Shown here in pieces: positions 2,077-60,614 of a stretch of 64,000 bases of DNA (positions are counted from its first letter, which is position 1; the number at the start of each line of letters is the position of its first letter). The notes beneath the pieces were generated by a model. The model made no database searches and was not told where the DNA came from. It worked only from the letters and a program-made list of their open reading frames with translations. The stretch is from an uncultured Chloroflexia bacterium (lineage in GTDB: Bacteria > Chloroflexota > Limnocylindria > Limnocylindrales > CSP1-4), in assembly GCA_963734535.1 (NCBI GenBank), contig CAVTHS010000014.1:224001-288000 (forward strand), read 5' to 3'. A program made the translations under genes and the position numbers.

Positions 2077-3203
2077 CGGCGCCCCTGCCGCCCGACTTGC
2101 GCGAGGCCGACGACGCCGCGTCCGACGGACATACTGGCGCCCTCGCGGACCCGGCCGAGGGTCGCGACGCCAGCGCCGACCAGCTGTCGCTCGGGCGGCG
2201 CCTCCGCCAGCCCCGGACCATCCTGAGCCTTGTCGTCCCGCTCGTCCTTCTCGTGCTCGTCTTCCGCGTCGCGCTCAACGTGGACGTCAACGAGCTCGTT
2301 GCGGCCGTCCGGGCCGCGAACCCCGGCTTCCTCCTGGCTGCGTTCCTCATCTTCTACGCCGGCTTCCCGCTGCGCGGCTTTCGCTGGGCGCTCCTCCTCC
2401 GCGGAGCCAGCTTCCGGTTGGGCACGCCGGACGCGACGCGGATCCTCTTCCTCTCGTGGCTCGTCAACTGCCTCGTGCCCGCCAAGCTCGGGGACGTCTA
2501 CCGCGCCTACCTCCTGAAGATCAACAGCACGGCCTCGCTCTCGCGGACCTTCGGGACGGTGTTCATCGAGCGGATCCTGGACCTCTTCGCGATCGCGGTC
2601 CTGGGCCTCGCAGCCGGCTACTGGAGCTTCCGGAACGGGCTGCCGCCGTCGATCCAGGTGGTCTTTGCCATCGGCGTGGGGGTCGTCGTGGTCCTGGCCC
2701 TGATGCTCCTCACGTTGCGCAACTTCGGGCGGCGAATCCTGGTCCGGCTGCCGATCCCGCGCCGCGCGCGCCTCCTCGAGCTCTACGATCGGTTCGAAGA
2801 GGGCGTGTTCGGGGCCGTCGGAATCCGGGCGCTCCCCGGCCTCGTCATGGTGACCGGGCTCATCTGGGCGACGGAGGCGCTGCGGCTCTATCTCGTGGTC
2901 CGGGCGCTCGGCTTCCAGAGCGTCGAGCTGGGCATCTCGGGGTCGTTCTTCGTCGCGCTGATCGGCTCGCTCCTCACGGCGGTCCCGCTGAGCCCGGCCG
3001 GCCTCGGGATCGTGGAGCTGGGAGTGGTGGGCGTCATGACCGCGGCGTACGGGATCCCGCTGACGCAGGCCACCACGATCGCGCTCGTCGACCGGACGAT
3101 CAGCGTCTTCTCGATCATCGTCTTCGGCGGGATCTTCTACGCGATCTCGCCGCTCCGGAAGGGCGGTGGCCACGTCGGCGAGGAGATGCCGGCCCGCGGT
3201 TGA
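2073..3203 (+). CDS. Lysylphosphatidylglycerol-synthase TM / flippase-like (UPF0104, AglD2-like) membrane protein
   Basis: RGFRW, NCLVPAKLGDVYRAY, ERILD and PLSPAGLGIVE motifs; multiple TM helices; ATG overlaps upstream stop. Confidence 0.85.
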   Translation: MTAPLPPDLREADDAASDGHTGALADPAEGRDASADQLSLGRRLRQPRTILSLVVPLVLLVLVFRVALNVDVNELVAAVRAANPGFLLAAFLIFYAGFPLRGFRWALLLRGASFRLGTPDATRILFLSWLVNCLVPAKLGDVYRAYLLKINSTASLSRTFGTVFIERILDLFAIAVLGLAAGYWSFRNGLPPSIQVVFAIGVGVVVVLALMLLTLRNFGRRILVRLPIPRRARLLELYDRFEEGVFGAVGIRALPGLVMVTGLIWATEALRLYLVVRALGFQSVELGISGSFFVALIGSLLTAVPLSPAGLGIVELGVVGVMTAAYGIPLTQATTIALVDRTISVFSIIVFGGIFYAISPLRKGGGHVGEEMPARG

Positions 3204-51421: not shown

Positions 51422-53470
51422 TCAAGCCTCGCGCAGTGGCCGGCTGGCGAGCCCGGCAAGCCCGGCCGCCAGCGTGATCACGCCGAAGACCACGAGCACC
51501 GGCCCCACCCCAGCGGCGTCGCCCAGGAGGCCGCTGGCCGCCATCGCGAACGTCATGGCCCCGAAGACCGCGGAGAACCGGAAGCCGATCACCCGCCCGA
51601 TCATGTCGCCGGGTGTCCGTTCCTGGAAGAGCGTCTGGGTCGGGATGATGAAGACCATGTTCGAGATGCCCATCGCGAACGCCAGGCCAAGCGCGAGCGG
51701 CAGGTTGTTGGTCAGGCCCAGGCCGACCACCGCGAGGCCGTACACGGCGTAGCCGCCGATCACCATCCGGCCCTTCGCGATCCGCGAACCCAGCAGGCCG
51801 ATCACGAACCCGCCGAGCAGGTTGCCGACGCCGATCGCCGTCTCGATGAAGGCGTAGGCGGCGGTCCAGTCGAGCGACCCGAGTCGCAGGACCACCTTCG
51901 CGTAGAGCGGCGTGAGCGCGATCGTCGCGCCGACCGTCAGCTGCCCCGCGACCGCCTGCAGCGTGTTGGCGAAGAGGACGGGCTCGCGACGAAGGAATCG
52001 CCAGCCGGCGGACAGGTCGGCGCGGATCCCGGCCAGCCCGGGGACGGGGTCGGCCGACCCAGCCGAGCGGACCACCGGCGGGATCACCACCACCATCACC
52101 AGGAGGGCCGACGCGACATACGACACGGAGTCGAGCCAGAACGCCAGCGGCAGCGCGCTCCCGAGGAACGCCACGAACAGCCCCGCGAAGGGATAGCCGA
52201 TGACGTCGGCCAGGGTCTCGTTGAGCCATGTCGCGGCGTTCGCCGACACGAGCTCATCCTCGTGCACGACCCTCGGCAGGACGGCCGTCCGGGCCGGCCG
52301 GAAGAAGATCGAGACGGTCGTCAGGAGGAAGACCAGCGGGTAGGCCAGCACGACGCTCACGCCGACGCCCGCGGGAATGAGCACGACGATCCCCGCGCGA
52401 ATGAGGTCGCTCGCGATCAGGACGTGCTTCTGGTTCCAGCGGTCGACCAGGACGCCCGCGAGCGGTCCGAAGAGGAGGTTCGGCAGCGTCGCCGCAACGA
52501 ACGTCAGGGCGCCCGCGATCGCCGAGTTCGTGGTCCCGTAGACAAGCGCCGCCAGCGCCACCTGGTGGATCCGGTCGCCGAAGAGGCTGATCACCTGCCC
52601 CGTCTGCAGCGCGGAGAAGGATCCGTTGACTGCGAGCCGAACGTACGGGTGATGGCGCGCCCGGATCGCGACCGTCCGGAGGACGCCGGGCAGGAGCGGT
52701 GCCGTGACGCCGCCCGACGACATCGGCGCCGGTGTTGCCAGCCCCGCGCCCGAGCCGCCCAGGATCATCGGCCGCTCCAGCGCAGCGATGCCAACCAGGC
52801 TCGCCGCGAGGCCGGTCCCTGCGCGCACGCCGCCCGTCTGCTCGGAGCCGGGCGATCCGGCCAGGACCACCGGCTGGCTCGGGTCGGCGCTTCGGAGCGT
52901 GCGGCCGTCCGACCCGACCTCGTCCGCGTGACGCACCATGCCCGCGAACAGGAAGAACCCGAGTCCGACGTCGAGGATCACGTCGCCGATCGAGAGAACA
53001 TTGCGCAGGAACGGCAGCGGAACCGGGATCACGTCGCCCAGCGGGCCCGCCGACCACATGAAGGCGGCGTCCAGGCTCGCCGGCAGGATCACGTGGATGG
53101 GCGAGAGGACGTCCGCCCGGCCGAACCCGGCCGCGACGAGGCTCGGTTCCCAGATTGGCATGAAGCCGCCGTTCACCAGGATCGCCGTGGCGTTGAGCCC
53201 GATCCCGACGAGCGCCAGGCTCATGCCCGGCCTCGCCCGGTTCGCCCACAGCCCGATGGCAAGGACGCCATAGGCGGCGGCAAGAAGCGGAACCCGCAGC
53301 GTCTCGGCGATGGCGACGTCCCGGCCCAGCGCCGCCTCGGTACCCAGGCGAAGGGCGAGCGCGCCGAAGATCACGAGCGGCCAGCGGAGGCGGATCGAGA
53401 TGAGGTTGTCGATGCGGCCGCCGACCGCGAACCCCGCGACCAGCCCGATGATCAGCCCCGCGATCAGCAC
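51422..53470 (-). CDS. DUF5317 domain fused to an MFS transporter (DHA3/macrolide-efflux-like)
   Basis: N-terminal GG..DNL..IRLRW, N..AILVNGGFMP, LGDVI, SIGDV; C-terminal GQVISLFGD, AGVLVDRWN, SDLIRA, FFRPA, GRV. Confidence 0.8.
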   Translation of the reverse strand: MLIAGLIIGLVAGFAVGGRIDNLISIRLRWPLVIFGALALRLGTEAALGRDVAIAETLRVPLLAAAYGVLAIGLWANRARPGMSLALVGIGLNATAILVNGGFMPIWEPSLVAAGFGRADVLSPIHVILPASLDAAFMWSAGPLGDVIPVPLPFLRNVLSIGDVILDVGLGFFLFAGMVRHADEVGSDGRTLRSADPSQPVVLAGSPGSEQTGGVRAGTGLAASLVGIAALERPMILGGSGAGLATPAPMSSGGVTAPLLPGVLRTVAIRARHHPYVRLAVNGSFSALQTGQVISLFGDRIHQVALAALVYGTTNSAIAGALTFVAATLPNLLFGPLAGVLVDRWNQKHVLIASDLIRAGIVVLIPAGVGVSVVLAYPLVFLLTTVSIFFRPARTAVLPRVVHEDELVSANAATWLNETLADVIGYPFAGLFVAFLGSALPLAFWLDSVSYVASALLVMVVVIPPVVRSAGSADPVPGLAGIRADLSAGWRFLRREPVLFANTLQAVAGQLTVGATIALTPLYAKVVLRLGSLDWTAAYAFIETAIGVGNLLGGFVIGLLGSRIAKGRMVIGGYAVYGLAVVGLGLTNNLPLALGLAFAMGISNMVFIIPTQTLFQERTPGDMIGRVIGFRFSAVFGAMTFAMAASGLLGDAAGVGPVLVVFGVITLAAGLAGLASRPLREA

Positions 53471-54885
53471 GGCTGGGCGGGGGTCAGGAAGCGTCCGTGG
53501 GTGGGCCGCCCGGCGCAGCCGGCGGAATCATCCGCGCCGCGGCCTGGGCGAGGAGCGGGACAGGTCGCGACTCGGTCGGGCGCCCGGGCGTCTGCCACGT
53601 CCTTGGCCCACGACGTGCGCACGAACGCGTCGACCATCACCGGATCGAACTGGACGCCCGCGTACTTGCGCAGCTCCGCGAGTGCCTGCTCGCGCGACAA
53701 CGGCCGCATCCGATACGGGCGCGCCGACGTCATCGCCTCGAACGCGTCGGCCACGTGGAGCACGCGCGCCAGCTTGGGGATCTCGTCGCCCATGAGCCGA
53801 TCCGGGTACCCGGAGCCGTTGTACCACTCGTGGTGGTGCCGGATGATCGGCAGCTCCGGGGCCAGCTTCCCGACGTGGGCAATGATGTTGGCCCCGATCA
53901 CCGGGTGCCGGTTCATGAGCGCCCGCTCGTCCCGCGTCAGCTTGTCCTGCTTGAGCAGCACGCTGTCCGGCACCCCGATCTTGCCGATGTCGTGCAGCAG
54001 CCCGCCCCACTCGAGGGCCTGGATCTCGTCGTCCTTCAACCGCATCACGTGCCCCATGTCCACCGAGATCAGCTGCACGCGCTCGCTGTGACCGGACGTG
54101 AAGGTATCCCTCGCATCGACTGCCTGCGCGAGTGCCCCGATGGTCTGCGTGAACATCTCCTGCACTTCGACGACTTGACGAAGTGCGACTCGCATGATGT
54201 AGATGGGCAGGACGCGAAGAAGAGAGTTGCCCACCATCCGACCTCGAGAGGCGATAGATCTGCGTCATCAGCCAAGCCAGGGGAGCGAGTGCAACCCTGT
54301 CGCGAAGAACGTCGGTCGATCCCCGAGCAAGACCGTTCTGGTCGATTGCTGCGTTCGAAGGGCGACCGTTATTGATGTGAAGCTCACGTTGAGCGCAAAG
54401 AACACAGACGCAGCCCGGCGAGCGTCGATACGAAGTCGCCGGCCGGAGCGGTTGATCCCGACGCCCGAGTTCCGTCAGGACGATCTGACGCCCGAACGTC
54501 CCGCTGCGATCGCAGGAACAACAAGTCCCGCGTGGTTGGCAAGGGTTCCGTACCACGGGACCCGACCCGAGTCTCCCGATACTCCTTGTCCCGATGGCGC
54601 GACGATCGCAGCCTGCGGCCTGGTCCTCCCAGACTCATCGCGGCGACGATTGGCGCGATCGACGTGTTGATGAGCGTAGCCCCGCGCCATCGGACTGGCA
54701 GAGCCGAGGCTAGGAGGGTCAGCCCCGTCCAGAAGACGATCCCGGCGAGGACGTCGATTGTCTCGGAGCCAAACAGGTCCAGCCGAATCTGCTATCTGAC
54801 AGGAATCACGACGACTCGTGACGACTAGCACAAGGTGCGCCGACCGTCACGAGCTCGCAATGTAGATGCTGAGGCTCTTAGGCAT
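53464..54885 (-). CDS. HD-GYP domain protein with an N-terminal multi-TM sensor region (TM part heavily frameshifted)
   Basis: DARD.FTSGHSERV, LLHDIGK, HP..G, HHHEWYNGSGYP, VADAFEAMTSARPYR, QFDP; upstream fragments MPKSLSIYI, GIVFWTGLTLLASALPV, PWYGTLANHAG; GAAGGGA RBS before ATG 54885. Confidence 0.82.
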
Positions 54886-54963
54886 CCGATCCCTTCAGGC
54901 GACCGTCGGCTGTCCTTGGACTGTAGACGTACCCGGACGAGCCGGAAGGTGAGACAGAAGTAC

Positions 54964-55053
54964 CTAGAACCCCTTCAGTGATGCTCCCCCAGCAATAACG
55001 GCCGCGCCGATAGGCCGACGGTACCGCGAGGAGGGCGCAGTCCGAGTCTTCAT
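54964..55053 (-). CDS. Small peptide (29 aa), candidate signalling precursor
   Basis: MKTRTAPSSRYRRPIGAAVIAGGASLKGF*; GGGAG upstream; co-oriented directly 5' of the HD-GYP gene. Confidence 0.6.
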   Translation of the reverse strand: MKTRTAPSSRYRRPIGAAVIAGGASLKGF

Positions 55054-55267
55054 CACTGGAGACCTAGCTCCCGTCCCCTGCCGTCAGAAGCCCTTGGAAC
55101 CGAACTCGGGACCCATCGTGTGCCCTCCAATGGGTTTCCGTGCCCCCGCGAAATCACGAAAACCGACCTAACAGATTGGTCGGTCGGTTGCACTAGTCGC
55201 TCCACCTCCCCCCTAAGTGCCCATTTCGGGAGGAGGTATCAGCGCGTCCGCTTGTTCACTTTGCTTC

Positions 55268-55285
55268 CTAGTACCGCGGTACTAG
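55268..55285. promoter_or_regulatory. Perfect 18-bp palindrome upstream of the peptide gene
   Basis: CTAGTACCGCGGTACTAG is self-complementary. Confidence 0.5.
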
Positions 55286-55344
55286 TCGGCGAACCGGACT
55301 TTAGGCTGCTGCGCGAGCAACGGTCAATACCGAACCCTCCCTAT

Positions 55345-58300
55345 CTAGCCCAAGAGATCCTCAAGGTGAGGCGGATCAAGGCCGAGGTCCCGCTGACCCA
55401 GTGAGTAGTGTCCGTACTGTTCGGCCGCGGCAGCGTAGGCGCCGACCAAGGTATAGAGCCGTATCACGGTCTTCTCGACCTCGTCGAGTTGCGGGTCAAT
55501 CTCAATGGCCCGCTGAGCGAGGCGCATCGCACGATCGATCTGACCAGTGTCTGCATCGTGCGTCGACCGCGCGCTCCACGATCTCGAGGTATCTCGCGTG
55601 CATCGATGCTCTCGGATCGGGGCCGCCCATTCTTCGTAGGTGAAGTCGAGGGCGAATCGTCCCGAGTAGATCTGTGACACGCGATCGGCCTGGGCCGGGG
55701 TCGCGAGAGCGCCGATCGACGCTGCAATACGTCGATACTCATGGCTTCTGCTCGTAACTAGGTCGGAGTCTAGCCACAGCACATCGGGGTCGTGATGCAG
55801 ATACCCGGGGCTCAAGTCCTCCGACGTAGTCGGGCTCGAATACGCGACGGAGGAAGTAGACGGTCTGGTGCAGTGAGTTGGCGGCCTGCTCCGGATCCTG
55901 ATCCGGCCACAGCGCGTCAAGTACCTGGTCCCGCGTTGCCGACATCTTTGGCTGAGCTAACAGGAAGCAAAGGAGCGCAAGAGCCTTCCGGCGGATCGTC
56001 GTCCCCGGTATCTCCATCGAACCAACCCAGATAACCAATCCGGCCGAGATCGTCGACATAGACCAAGTCGGCAACTCGACGGGCGAGCGACTTACCGAAG
56101 TCTGGATGACGGAGTTGTCCCTTGGACTCCTTCGAAGCCAGCCGGAGTAGGCGAACGTCCTCTTTGGTCCCGATTACCTCCAGGAGGCGGGCGGCTTGCC
56201 ATCGCTCTCGGCCTCCTGGAGCTGCAACGAGAATGCGAATTGGCGATTCGCCAGCGACGCGGGCGTGACTCAGCCTCTGCAGCGGACGACGTCGATCGCA
56301 GCGTCGGACAGGTCGGCGATCCTCCGGAGCACTGCCTCTGCCCGAACGCTCAAGAGCGCGCGATCGCGGAGCCCGATGGCGCTGACGATCGCCGACGCTT
56401 CGTCCGGCGTGGCAGATAGTCCACGCAACAGCGATGCGTCGATAAGGCGACCCAGCGCGCTGCTTGCCGCCGGGCTAACGTTTCGAGCGCTAGTCGAGAC
56501 GCGGGATCAACCGTTCCGAATGCGAGAACTCGCGAATTCAGTGCGCCAGCAGACGCTGGACGTGGAAGGCGGGGTATCCCGTCAGGACTCCGCAGGCATT
56601 CGGCGGATATGTGAGCCCGCGTCGCCTCGCCCACCTCACCAGGTCTTCCAGCCGCGAGAGCTGTCTCCGGTGAGAAGCTGGAAGCACTCCAGGGAGGCAT
56701 CTGGAGCACCCAGAAGGTCGGCCTCCGCAGCAGTCTGAGAGGCGCGCGTCCGGATCGTCGTAGGCTCCAATGATCTCGGCGCCCTCGACGAGGCTCTCAA
56801 ATCGCGTCCCGGCTCTCGCTGCCTCGAGCGAGTGTCACGTCCAGCTTCGCCTCCGCCTCGACCCAATCGCCGTCGTGGGCAAGGGCCCAAGCCTACAGTG
56901 TCTGCACCGACGATATTTCCGTTCCCGCGGAGGAGCGGCTAAGCGCATCCACGGCGCCAGCCGCCCGCGTCGCGGGTTGCGTGCACGTCGCCTCGAGCAC
57001 GCAACATCCACGCGGCATTCAAGAGCGAGATGCCTTGGTAGTGCCAGTAGCCCCGCCGCTCGAATCGGGTTGCGAGGTCCGCGATAGGCATGGATCGACA
57101 CCGCCGAGGTCTCCGTCGACGGGAATGATTCGAGCCAAGTCATGGCATCCGCGAGGGTGGCGATCGCTCGCCGGTTCTTCCGACAGAGATCGCGCCGCCC
57201 AGCGAACGGCGCGTTCGTAGGTCGCCTACCCCATAAGACGCGTTCATCATTGACCCCATCGCGATAGCAACGGTCATGCGACCGGTCGCTTCCTCCGACG
57301 ACACGATCGATGGCACCTGCGGCAGCCGCGGCTGCTCCGGCCGGATCACCGGCACGGAGTCGTCCTGATGCCACTATCACGTCGTGCCAGGCGCCGAGGG
57401 TGGCGGGGTCGAGATGGGAGGCGAGCTGCTCGGCGTCCTTGTAGGCGCCGGAGCCGAGGATGACGGGGACTGCCGCCGAGAGGACTCGGACGGCGTCGTC
57501 GGCCAGGTCGGCGGCGGCGAAGTGGTACGCCGCGACCGACCACGAGGCAGGCTCCGCGGCGCGCGCGATGCGGGCGTGGATCTGGCGGACCGCGATCGCC
57601 CCGACGGCGTCGTGCAGCCGGCCCTCCAGGAACGTCCGGACGAGCGGGTGGAAGAGGCGTCCGGCCTGCCCGGTTCGGCCGCGTCGCGACAGGAGACCCG
57701 CACCCTCGGCGGCGTCGAGGAAGCCGCGAGCGGCCTCCGGGGTGACCTCGGCGGCCGCGGACGCGAGCTCCGGCGTGACGACGGCCAGCAGGCAGCTCCG
57801 CTCGACGAAATCCTGGGCGGCACGTGGCATGCGCCCGACGACCTCCTCGGCAAGGTAGTCGTGCAGGTCGCCCTGCCGACCGGACAGGCCGCGGATGACG
57901 GTCCGAACCTCGTCGCGCGGCCGCCCGCGGACCACGGACTCGACGAGCCGCAGCGTGGCCGCCCATCCCTCGGTGGTGCGGGCGAGGTCGTCGAGGAGGT
58001 CGCGCTCGAGCGGGTCGTGGTAGGTGTCCCGGAAGAGGCGCTCCGTCTCGTCGCGGTCGAATCGCAGGTCGTCGGTGCCGATCTCGGCCGCTTCGCCGAT
58101 TGCGCGGAGGCGGGCGAGGGGGAGCGTTGGCCGCGTCCGCGAGGCGATGACGACCGCCAGCCGGTCGGGACCGCGGACCACGAGCTCACGGACGATCTCG
58201 CGGATCTCCGGGACGTCGTCCACCTGCTGGTAGTCGTCGAGGACCAGCGCCGTGCCGACCACCGCCCAGGCACGAAGCTCCGCCAGGAGTGTCCTGACGA

Positions 58301-58832
58301 TCGCGCTCCGGTTGTCGAGGGTCGCCGCGAGCTCGCGCAGGAGGCCTGCCGTGTTCGGGGCGAACTCCGGATCGATCTCGCGACCGGCGGCGACGATGTG
58401 ATGGATGAACACGGCCCAGTCGCGGTCGTGCTCGTCCAGGCGATACCAGAGCGTGCGCACGCGGGTACGCCGGCTCCAGTCCGCGAGGAGCGTGGTCTTC
58501 CCATAGCCCGGCTCGGCGATGACGAGGGCGAGCCGGGACCGCGTCTTCGCGTGCAGCCAGTCGATCAGCCGGTCGCGCCGGAGCGTCTCCTCCGGGAGCA
58601 TGGGCGGCTGGATCTTGCCGATCTGGACCGGATAGCCGAAGACTTCCACGTCGTCCTGCTGGGCAGCGCTCGGAGTCCGATGCGAGACGGGACCCGGCCC
58701 AACCGGGACGAGGCGTGTCGGGACCGTCTGCGGATCACGGGCGAGCGGGTGTGCCGACCACCGACCGCCCACCTGGGCGTGGGCGGGGGTCAGGGAAGCC
58801 GGGCCGGGAGCCGGGGAAGCCATCGCGGCCAT
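55345..58832 (-). CDS. MalT-like STAND ATPase with C-terminal winged helix + BTAD (SARP-type) regulator; distal half heavily frameshifted
   Basis: KIQPP..LRRDRL, AEPGYGKTT, WYRLD..DRD, LVLDDY, DLRF, TEGW, DYLAEEV, HPL; C-terminal fragments RRKALALLCFLL, RDQVLDALWPD..P..A.NSLHQTVYFLRR, YEEW, IDPQLDE. Confidence 0.78.
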
Positions 58833-58926
58833 CGTGCCGCGAAGTCCTCACCGGCGGCTTATCTGGACCGTCGCCGGGCCTCTCCCGCCCCTGGGGCGGT
58901 TCGCGCTCGCGCGCGGCGTATGCGTC

Positions 58927-59255: not shown

Positions 59256-60614
59256 TTACGGGGCCGCGCCCGCGTAGCGCTCGCCGGCATAGCTGACGAA
59301 GCGCGTCTGGCTCTTCTTGAACCAGAGGTCAACCTCGCCGGTGGGGCCGTTGCGGTGCTTGGCAAGCCGGAGCTTGACGACCTCGCCGTCCGCATCCTGG
59401 TCCTCGCCCCGCTCCTTCTCGCGCCACAGGAACACGACCAGGTCTGCGTCCTGCTCGATTGCGCCCGACTCGCGGAGGTCGGAGAGCCGGGGCTCCTTCG
59501 ACTCGCGCATCTCGGGCTGGCGCGACAGCTGCGAGAGCGCGACGACGGGAACGCGAAGCTCGCGGGCGAGCGCCTTCAACCCGCGGCTGATCTCCGAGAC
59601 TTCCTGGACGCGGTTCGAATCGCGCGCGGTGGATGACGCCTGCATGAGCTGGAGGTAGTCCACGATCACGAGGTCGAGGCCGACCTCCGCCTGCAGCCGC
59701 CGGGCCTTCGTGCGCAGCTCCATGGTGCTGATGTTCGGCGTGTCGTCGATGTAGATCGGCGCTTCGGACAGGCCGGTCATGGCCTTGGAGACGCCCACGA
59801 AGTCCATCTCGTCGAGGAAGCCCGTGCGCAGACGCTGGCTGTCGATGTTCCCGACCGAGCTGAGAAGCCGGAGAACGAGCTGCTCCTTGCTCATCTCCAG
59901 GCTGAAGATCCCCACGCTCTTGCGGGGCGTGTTGCTGATCGCGGCGAACTCCGCGATGTTCAGGGCGAGGCTGGTCTTGCCCACGGATGGGCGAGCGGCG
60001 ATCACGACGAGGTCCGACGGCTGCAGGCCGGTGGTGAGCGTGTCGAGGTCCGCGAAGCCCGTCCGGATGCCGCTGATCTCGCCGCGGTGGGTGTGCAGGT
60101 AGTCGAGCCGGTCGAACGCCTCGTGGAGGAGCGTCCGGAGCGGGCTGAACCCGGCGGCAACGCGGCGCTCCGAGACGGCGAAGAGCTCCGACTCGGCGCG
60201 GTCGATCGCTTCCTGGACTTCCGGCCCGTCCTCGTAGCCGATCCCGGCGATCTTTCCGGCCGCCGCGATCAGGTTTCGCAGCACGGACTTGCGTTCGACG
60301 ATCCGGGCGTACTGGGCGGCGAAGACGGCGGTGGGGGTCTGCTCGGAGAGCGACGAGAGGTACGCACGGCCGCCGATCTGCTCGAGGTCCCCGGCTCGCT
60401 CGAGCGCCTCGGCGACCGTGATGATGTCGATCGGCTCACGGCGCTCCCAGAGCTCCACCATCGACGCGTAGATGCGGCCGTGGGCCTGGCGGTAGAAATC
60501 GTCCGGGTGGACGATGTCGGCGACCTCGATGATCGCGTCGCGATCGATGAGGAGCGCTCCGAGGACGGACTGCTCGGCTTCGATGCTCTGGGGTGGAAGG
60601 CGGTCGAGGGACAC
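59256..60614 (-). CDS. dnaB: Replicative DNA helicase
   Basis: PPQSIEAEQSVLG, AARPSVGKT, FSLEMS, VDYLQLM, LSQLSR, SDLRESGAIEQDAD, KHRNGPTG. Confidence 0.98.
   Translation of the reverse strand: MSLDRLPPQSIEAEQSVLGALLIDRDAIIEVADIVHPDDFYRQAHGRIYASMVELWERREPIDIITVAEALERAGDLEQIGGRAYLSSLSEQTPTAVFAAQYARIVERKSVLRNLIAAAGKIAGIGYEDGPEVQEAIDRAESELFAVSERRVAAGFSPLRTLLHEAFDRLDYLHTHRGEISGIRTGFADLDTLTTGLQPSDLVVIAARPSVGKTSLALNIAEFAAISNTPRKSVGIFSLEMSKEQLVLRLLSSVGNIDSQRLRTGFLDEMDFVGVSKAMTGLSEAPIYIDDTPNISTMELRTKARRLQAEVGLDLVIVDYLQLMQASSTARDSNRVQEVSEISRGLKALARELRVPVVALSQLSRQPEMRESKEPRLSDLRESGAIEQDADLVVFLWREKERGEDQDADGEVVKLRLAKHRNGPTGEVDLWFKKSQTRFVSYAGERYAGAAP

Follow-up and report, generated by a model that had tools for sequence, protein, structure and literature searches.

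What do the genes at positions 51422-58832 of the minus strand, in a stretch of DNA from an uncultured Chloroflexota bacterium (Limnocylindrales, CSP1-4), encode and how are they controlled? The window analysed here is the whole stretch of 64,000 nucleotides (G000:C14:224001-288000, i.e. contig CAVTHS010000014.1 of GenBank assembly GCA_963734535.1). It belongs to a metagenome-assembled genome (MAG) of 14 contigs and 3.2 Mb, with a completeness of 89.9%, a contamination of 7.1% and a GC content of about 70%. An initial annotation had proposed an undescribed peptide-signalling module made of four co-oriented units: a MalT-like ATPase-wHTH-BTAD regulator, a 29-codon open reading frame (ORF) with a ribosome-binding site, a multi-transmembrane HD-GYP protein and a fusion of DUF5317 with a major facilitator superfamily (MFS) domain. 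The four units exist, with the coordinates and domains proposed, but they are not all intact, the regulator gene and the sensor half of the HD-GYP gene being broken in the assembly. With a little more confidence than doubt, we favour a reading in which the locus is a riboswitch-gated operon for feedback or homeostasis of cyclic di-GMP (c-di-GMP), located beside a STAND/SARP-type activator and kept across a class of Chloroflexota.

The riboswitch was missed by the initial annotation. It lies in the 460-bp spacer between the regulator and HD-GYP genes, i.e. in the leader, where a c-di-GMP-II riboswitch aptamer (RF01786; 55173..55258, minus strand) scores above the gathering score of its covariance model (61.4 bits versus 53.5, E about 1e-13, full model positions 1-84). 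Relatives of the locus were compared at increasing distance: 16 loci fetched from genus relatives, 13 loci with the fused DUF5317-MFS form from other genera and a second family, 7 distant loci and 30 loci with a stand-alone DUF5317 gene. The aptamer is found at the same locus in all 16 genus relatives and is there the best-scoring copy in the genome. The RF01786 cut-off is passed in nine of the 13 fused-form loci, and the core of the aptamer can further be made out in L081 and L088. A match to the related c-di-GMP-II-GAG model is located upstream of the peptide genes in one of the seven distant loci. The structure tested was the one given by the Rfam alignment of the window's own sequence, a choice that in itself favours it over slid versions. 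Among 27 sequences, 90% of the cells of the Rfam helices are paired (29-41% in slid-partner controls), seven of the 13 aptamer pairs show a compensatory change on both sides, and 35 compensatory cells were counted, none of 500 shuffles being as high. The Rfam fold did not emerge from the RNAalifold consensus of the aptamer alignment; pairs were therefore counted for the Rfam structure instead. At the level of sequence, we thus demonstrate the presence of a predicted c-di-GMP-II aptamer at this locus. Genomes of the genus also contain up to 26 full-length c-di-GMP-II-like matches each that remain below the cut-off; in G000, two such matches (C3:330900-330984 and C3:335031-335116) precede ORFs with signal-peptide-like N-termini.

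The leader contains further elements. A promoter-like site, TTGACC-N18-TAAAGT (55298..55327, minus strand), is kept in the genus alignment and was found once, for 0.1 expected in shuffles. Between its -10 element and the aptamer, the sequence reads as an 18-bp perfect palindrome, CTAGTACCGCGGTACTAG (55268..55285, minus strand), which is imperfect in relatives and may serve as an operator or form a 5' stem-loop. The end of the aptamer overlaps a hairpin, AACCGACC...GGUCGGUU, followed by UUCGUG (55157..55189, minus strand), that is a candidate expression platform. The conserved 3' strand of the aptamer, CAACCGACC, is the 5' arm of this conserved hairpin, after which UUUUCGUG is found. This sharing suggests that ligand binding prevents formation of the hairpin and that the riboswitch is an ON switch. 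The fold of the whole leader is not more stable than that of shuffles (z = -1.09). A long-range interaction between the 5' leader and the last part of the 10-codon ORF described below, present in one minimum-free-energy fold, was rejected because inspection by eye showed that it is not kept in the alignment.

The genes that surround this leader are also conserved together. The order regulator / HD-GYP / DUF5317-MFS is kept in all 16 genus loci, with dnaB upstream of the cluster in 15 of them (the 16th begins at a contig end), and in 11 of the 13 loci from other genera and the second family. In distant genomes, the regulator, DUF5317 and HD-GYP genes are still found together, in different orders. 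DUF5317 co-occurs with HD-GYP genes in 16/16 genus loci, 13/13 fused-form loci and 15/30 stand-alone loci (at most 1.5 kb apart); within the same distance, the stand-alone loci carry a separate MFS gene in five cases and a wHTH gene in six. This co-occurrence and the conservation of the small ORF had been set beforehand by the initial annotation as the two points on which its proposal could be refuted, and neither refuted it. In L087, one of the fused-form loci, the order is HD-GYP then MFS-DUF5317; a c-di-GMP-I-GGC match (2765-2845, minus strand; 61.1 bits versus 59) directly follows the DUF5317 gene, and upstream a class II aptamer is lacking.

The first large gene downstream of the leader is that of a membrane HD-GYP phosphodiesterase (53464..54885, minus strand). 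Its catalytic part is an intact ORF of 257 aa (53464-54237; HD_5, 131.6 bits) in which the motifs LLHDIGK and HHEWYNGSGYPD are present; judged by these matches, this is an HD-GYP phosphodiesterase domain. The true start is the ATG at 54885 (MPKSLSIYIA), which is followed by a stop 12 codons on. Intact homologues, such as the 514-aa protein of L024, have 502-514 aa, including an N-terminal membrane domain of about 230 aa for which Pfam holds no family. The multi-transmembrane protein announced by the initial annotation is therefore not what the assembly encodes, since the membrane domain is lost to 12-14 frameshifts and one stop between 54855 and 54215, in the broken sensor half (54215-54885). 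The initial annotation had correctly noted that the start of the DUF5317-MFS gene, a GTG, lies over the HD-GYP stop, with an overlap of 7 nt as assembled. The last 40 or so HD-GYP codons of the window are off the conserved tail frame of most relatives (...VPLLAQAAxRM...; about 53586-53589). One base, at 53586, is missing from contigs of two sequencing runs (X2 and X3). With the conserved frame, translation would end about 13 nt before the DUF5317 start, and the two genes would not overlap.

The regulator gene (55345..58832, minus strand) is also broken in the window. It starts with an ATPase ORF of 665 aa (56835-58832) whose AAA matches are below threshold, and it is in frame for its first 520 or so codons only, to about 57300. 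In a Pfam scan of the window, the wHTH (Trans_reg_C, 31.8 bits, 55739-56074) and BTAD (26.9 bits, 55345-55920) matches are carried by separate fragments in other frames. Hence, the domains listed by the initial annotation are confirmed by intact homologues, but a single ORF is not found here. Intact regulators have 1147-1189 aa, with an ATPase, a TPR-like middle part, then a C-terminal wHTH and BTAD. For instance, the 380 N-terminal residues of the intact regulator of L029 match MalT NF003420 with 178.9 bits, below the equivalog cut-off of 537, and its C-terminal part matches Trans_reg_C (27.0 bits) and BTAD (54.2 bits). On these matches, it is similar to MalT without being an equivalog and belongs to the STAND/SARP class. 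TPR matches are clear in the distant homologue of L089 (TPR_12, 80.3 bits; TPR_MalT, 56.5 bits) and below threshold in that of L029 (TPR_14, 21.2 bits versus 23.5). The MalT-like N-terminus, the Trans_reg_C and BTAD domains and the TPR_MalT match of L089 are shared with STAND and SARP regulators of the MalT/AfsR type. However, the SARP module of AfsR-type proteins is N-terminal and MalT ends in a LuxR-type HTH, whereas here the ATPase comes first, then the sensor and then a C-terminal wHTH-BTAD.

Does the 29-codon ORF (54964..55053, minus strand) encode a peptide? It runs from an ATG at 55053 to a stop at 54964, an alternative GTG start at 55056 giving 30 codons. Since the window contains dozens of ORFs of equal size, which is the chance level, its reality rests on conservation. 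The small ORF that the initial annotation expected upstream of HD-GYP/DUF5317 pairs is recognisable in 17/17 genus loci and intact in 14 of 16 relatives. It is also recognisable in 10 of the 13 loci from other genera and the second family, as ...AIAGGASFKGW, and in all seven distant loci examined. Among the latter, it is located directly upstream of DUF5317 (L089, L090, L094 and L095), upstream of HD-GYP / DUF5317 (L091, with two identical tandem copies, and L092) or upstream of HD-GYP / MFS / DUF5317 (L093, where a hairpin follows the peptide gene). The genus consensus, MK(T/H/S)RLLRLL...LAGGASL(K/N/R)G(F/L), which becomes MKxRLLRLL...LAGGASLKGF for the family, starts with basic residues, followed by a single hydrophobic helix, an A-G-G-A motif and a tail of 5 residues. 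The motif predicted beforehand (AxGA and an aromatic end) comes close to that of the family as a whole, i.e. a hydrophobic helix, A-x-G-A and a short tail whose last residue is aromatic in most members, though not in L089, L090 and L093. In the window, the 10 middle codons (TAPSSRYRRP, for LLRLLAVAST in relatives) are out of the conserved frame, and the ORF is still open, the two shifts compensating each other. The ribosome-binding site reported in the initial annotation is weak here (AGGT about 10 nt upstream). The Shine-Dalgarno (SD) sequence of this ORF is weak in the genus and strong in the distant homologues.

Codon substitutions point in the same direction. In 16 ungapped sequences, the 29-codon frame shows 1193 synonymous versus 1181 non-synonymous codon differences, and the other two frames 241 versus 2196 and 99 versus 2325 (synonymous shares of 10% and 4%). 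The last 10 codons have 4, 2 and 9 variable sites at codon positions 1, 2 and 3. Furthermore, a strict filter was applied that asks for basic residues at the start, then at least 15 consecutive hydrophobic or small residues, A-x-G-A and a short tail. It retains a peptide in 11 of the 30 stand-alone DUF5317 loci for about 0.6 expected, given a background of 0.0061 per strand-kb in G000. Judged by this conservation, the small peptide is a real translated gene. Neither Pfam nor NCBIfam holds a family for these peptides. The ESM Atlas contains unnamed clusters of 46-47 aa proteins (60-102 members) that resemble the L089 peptide, and it gave a possible lead to DUF7503 (0.85).

The leader contains a second small ORF of 10 codons, MGPEFGSKGF (55084..55116, minus strand), preceded by a strong SD (GGAGGG, spacer of 6 nt). 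It is found before the 29-codon ORF in 23 of 26 loci, always with 8-10 codons, and ends in K-(G/S/P/A) then F, W, C or L. It has a weak coding signature (synonymous share of 0.23 versus 0.13 and 0.37 in the other frames), and its segment shows no covarying RNA structure (covariation term of -0.64, one pair changed on both sides). It looks like a regulatory leader ORF. Both small ORFs might then act only in cis, their translation tuning the downstream genes through termination protection or ribosome-loading coupling. The strong SD, fixed length and weak coding signature of the 10-codon ORF agree with this, as do its stop located 16-47 nt before the weak-SD 29-codon ORF and the position of both ORFs inside a riboswitch-controlled leader. 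However, the 29-codon peptide is under clear purifying selection, keeps its membrane-helix pattern across the phylum and is found with a strong SD beside DUF5317 at loci where no riboswitch was found. A cis-acting role therefore fits the 10-codon ORF and not the 29-codon ORF, and for the pair we consider it very unlikely.

The peptide gene is tightly linked to DUF5317. In the window, DUF5317 is part of an intact DUF5317-MFS (DHA3/MFS_3-like) fusion of 682 aa (51422..53470, minus strand), in which DUF5317 (PF17248) matches residues 26-174 with 80.3 bits versus a cut-off of 25, MFS_3 scores 89.4 bits versus 27 and MFS_1 62 bits versus 33.4. One source, JGI, labels the homologues 'DHA3 family macrolide efflux protein-like'. 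DUF5317 is encoded by 91 of 301 sampled genomes of the phylum (a tally that includes the unpublished genome G266) and also by control genomes of Thermus and Thermotoga. The fused form was found in 800 proteins at E <= 1e-5 among 8000 candidates scored; those with a name carry the labels Chloroflexota and Candidatus Limnocylindrales. Only G, R, N, M, P, D and S residues are invariant in DUF5317, with D146, S160 and D163 among them and with the motifs NGGxMP and SxGD; there is no invariant His or Cys and no Pfam match to AgrB. We considered that the conserved SxGD, D and NGGxMP might point to a protease-like or PilZ-like protein and dropped the idea, as neither a fold nor a motif match was obtained. 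Two database proteins that combine HD-GYP and DUF5317, with or without MFS, in a single chain (P0115, 993 aa; P0124, 528 aa) may be true fusions, but they were not used as evidence because an assembly frameshift could create such chains.

The peptide is most likely a single-pass membrane partner of DUF5317, to which it would bind. As for KdpF, MgrB (the partner of PhoQ) and AcrZ, it would be a single helix of about 30 aa encoded in the operon of a putative polytopic partner. Unlike these, to which it has no sequence relation, the partner would be DUF5317 and some loci carry tandem copies. We propose that a sigma-70-like promoter drives the long leader, probably activated by the adjacent STAND/TPR/wHTH-BTAD regulator. 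In this leader, the aptamer strand shared with the downstream hairpin would decide the outcome: when bound to c-di-GMP, the aptamer would block the hairpin and expression would proceed. The transcript would then encode the 10-codon leader ORF and the 29-aa peptide, followed by the membrane HD-GYP phosphodiesterase and the DUF5317-MFS fusion. High c-di-GMP would in this way induce its own breakdown, while the peptide and DUF5317 with its MFS domain would provide the module with an input or an output at the membrane.

Several observations weigh against this homeostasis operon. Aptamer helix P1 is weak in the window. The post-aptamer hairpin, with just four U's and a long loop, fails the criteria of the terminator scan, which returned no site in the leader, so that we infer the ON logic from strand sharing alone. 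The action of the regulator on the operon promoter is presumed. A Foldseek search of the PDB with the AlphaFold model of DUF5317 (pLDDT 90.4) gave 16 matches at E <= 10, the best with a TMq of 0.38, and none at E <= 0.001. Co-folding of the peptide with DUF5317 lends weak support to their binding (ipSAE of 0.51, best of three controls 0.00), and, judged by the calibration, most passes at 0.51 are wrong for pairs that were not already likely. In this calibration, 58 of 80 solved complexes reached the mark, as did two of 110 mismatched pairs, and scores of at most 0.60 were obtained for just seven of the 80 solved complexes plus both passing mismatches. Besides, any membrane protein may offer a docking site to a hydrophobic helix. 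Finally, the two identical tandem peptide genes of L091 and the hairpin of L093 resemble a highly expressed precursor rather than a stoichiometric subunit.

Could the peptide then be a signal, as first proposed? The 29-aa product would be a precursor processed by DUF5317 and exported by the MFS domain, and a C-terminal piece of the SLKGF type would tune c-di-GMP turnover. The sensor of this piece would be the membrane domain of the HD-GYP protein or, in a variant akin to RRNPP/SHP systems, the TPR-like domain of the adjacent regulator once the piece has been taken up again. The family is kept with DUF5317 across the phylum and has the shape of a short precursor, with a basic N-terminus, a hydrophobic core, a small-residue motif and a short conserved tail. 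The arrangement of L091 and L093, the fusion of DUF5317 to an MFS domain of exporter type or its position beside one, and an adjacent regulator with a fast-evolving TPR-like sensor also speak for signalling. Moreover, some distant loci add an ORF of about 95 aa that weakly resembles the RiPP-type NHLP/Os1348 proteins (28.5 bits, cut-off of 40). However, DUF5317 has no invariant His or Cys, no AgrB match and no protease-like fold match; the analogy with AgrB proposed in the initial annotation fails on both residues and fold. Many members of the family have a Pro directly after A-x-G-A, which disfavours cleavage by ordinary signal peptidase I at this place. The tail is almost invariant within the genus and forms no specificity groups, although the putative receptors vary. 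Secretion is only presumed, and two of the four units are broken in the assembly. The idea that the transmembrane region of the HD-GYP protein senses the peptide is itself weakened: distant modules keep the peptide and DUF5317, but their HD-GYP proteins carry a cytoplasmic PAS or GAF domain and no membrane domain, which means that this membrane domain cannot be a general receptor. Altogether, we regard peptide signalling of this kind as quite unlikely. The additional ORFs of the distant loci (L089:7502-7795, L090:7510-7785 as oriented, and L095:7510-7797) encode 91-97 aa and lie between DUF5317 and the PAS/GAF HD-GYP gene; besides the NHLP/Os1348 match, a Frankia_peptide match (19.7 bits versus 48) is below its cut-off too.

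The staphylococcal agrBDCA system comprises a small precursor, the AgrB peptidase with catalytic His and Cys, a histidine-kinase receptor and a response regulator. As in agr, a small precursor-like ORF is found here beside polytopic membrane proteins and a regulator, and the most variable segments flank the small ORF. In contrast with agr, there is no AgrB-family match, the output enzyme is an HD-GYP protein and the peptide has a conserved tail. Among the ORFs and fragments of 51422-58832, Pfam detected ATPase, wHTH, BTAD, HD-GYP, DUF5317 and MFS domains and neither the kinase nor the receiver domain that an agr-type system comprises. The RRNPP and Rgg-SHP systems of Bacillota also associate a gene for a short peptide, basic then hydrophobic, with an adjoining cytoplasmic DNA-binding regulator that has a TPR-type sensor. 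Unlike them, the regulator is here a STAND ATPase of about 1150 aa with a C-terminal wHTH-BTAD, and no equivalent of the Opp-type importer, of Eep or of PptAB was identified, no search for an importer having been made.

A bolder version is that c-di-GMP signalling in Chloroflexota, and perhaps elsewhere, receives an unrecognised peptide input made up of the peptide family and DUF5317. DUF5317 would cut or present the peptide and the MFS domain would move it, peptide and c-di-GMP being integrated at one promoter and leader. The ligand, bound either by the fast-evolving TPR-like sensor of the regulator or by the sensor domain of the HD-GYP protein, would be the conserved tail, (S/G)-x-(K/R/N)-G-aromatic, to which the last codons of the 10-codon ORF bear a resemblance. 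We consider this version very unlikely.

Is the locus still alive in this strain? Proteins of intact homologues were aligned to the window DNA with a frameshift-aware dynamic programme. Against an intact homologue of 1189 aa, the regulator gene shows 16 frameshifts and one in-frame stop between 57263 and 55558; the events of the HD-GYP gene given above were counted against intact homologues of 502 and 514 aa. The same method finds no event in DUF5317-MFS or DnaB, and none in intact regulators whose middle domains are only 34-37% identical, which indicates that it invents no shifts. In the 3.2-Mb genome, just six segments of at least 1.2 kb lack a 220-codon ORF, and the locus is the second longest. 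The five others are C2:150207-155692, C8:29657-31673, C6:140707-142345, C6:143342-144834 and C3:388054-389287 of G000; the longest may be an rRNA operon and the other four might be broken or strain-variable loci.

Contigs from four public sequencing runs were compared with the window over 53300-58900. Those of run X1 are near-identical over the flanks, with 0-1 gaps, whereas over 54130-55129 their 992 nt contain 42 letter differences and 36 gaps. In none of the four runs do the contigs show the single bases that the window has at 55346, 56245 and 56281, and the base at 56448 is missing in each of the three runs covering it. The flanks of G023, the closest relative, show 95-96% identity and its interior 76%, with contig ends at both borders. 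Of the aligned set of 16 genus loci, 11, including the window, carry at least five events in the sensor-coding segments, versus three events in total for regulator residues 96-540 and one for HD-GYP residues 236-427. These two sensor segments are also the fastest evolving in intact proteins (34-75% identity for the sensor versus 80-93% for the ATPase). The GC content is about 60-66% over the 3' end of the regulator gene, the leader and the 5' half of the HD-GYP gene, for 70-76% in the flanks, and this dip is common to all relatives, including loci with intact genes (L026-L030 and L032).

The 30 or so one-base indels are probably local consensus errors produced where co-occurring strains differ strongly. 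This explanation has difficulties of its own: the rest of the genome is clean, three extra bases specific to the window are located outside homopolymers, and none of the sequencing runs contains more than 18% of the sampled words. The runs listed include none of RNA. Nor could an excess of insertions be taken as a sign of sequencing error, since the regulator has 12 gains and 4 losses and the HD-GYP half 5 gains and 7 losses. Alternatively, the locus may be truly dead in this strain, the regulator and the sensor half of the HD-GYP gene being pseudogenes while the riboswitch, the catalytic fragment and DUF5317-MFS persist. About 30 frame-breaking events within 3 kb of an otherwise clean genome, several extra bases outside homopolymers, a GC content that drops to 61-66% from 70-76% in the flanks, and regulators broken in several related assemblies, including the 2-contig genome G007 (six events), would agree with such decay. 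However, after frame correction the HD-GYP protein is still 80% identical to that of L036 and the regulator 52% identical to that of L032. Each gene has a single in-frame stop and no large deletion, the two shifts in the peptide ORF compensate each other, independent contigs lack the extra bases, and the GC dip also occurs where the genes are intact. In addition, the local pattern seen in 11 of the 16 genus loci fits a shared assembly problem at strain-variable segments better. A dead locus is thus unlikely in our view, though it has to be taken seriously. A second bold possibility is that the clusters of frameshifts in the sensor segments reflect a real, targeted hypervariation.

Upstream of the regulator, the window encodes DnaB (59256-60614, minus strand), the cluster lying downstream of dnaB. 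The DnaB match of L024, L027, L029 and L033 is split, residues 1-383 being followed about 1.2 kb further on by residues 381-452 within a single ORF of about 900 aa, which looks like an intein; the DnaB of the window (452 aa) has no insert.

How does such an operon relate to what is known? The class II c-di-GMP riboswitch was reportedly described by Lee et al. in 2010. Riboswitch control of c-di-GMP enzymes is already known, and the genes controlled by c-di-GMP-II riboswitches resemble the locus in that a c-di-GMP-metabolising enzyme is encoded among the genes whose 5' leader carries the aptamer. The locus differs from them in the two conserved small ORFs of its leader, in the pairing of the phosphodiesterase with DUF5317-MFS and in an expression platform that is not a clear intrinsic terminator. 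In the titles and opening parts of abstracts that were searched, we found nothing on the function of DUF5317, the peptide family or the operon, no link between a c-di-GMP-II riboswitch and such an operon and, in agreement with the initial annotation, no characterised system with this architecture. No literature linking Limnocylindria with c-di-GMP was found either.

What the locus adds to the literature searched is a micropeptide family that had escaped annotation, its tight linkage with DUF5317 and the regulator of STAND/SARP type that travels with them. The locus also holds a warning for MAGs obtained from long reads, since fast-evolving sensor segments can contain dense local frameshifts beside clean genes. 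Furthermore, DUF5317 gains a concrete context, that of c-di-GMP turnover at the membrane. Hence, the operon can be viewed as a candidate for the entry of a small protein or peptide into c-di-GMP signalling in a poorly studied soil phylum.

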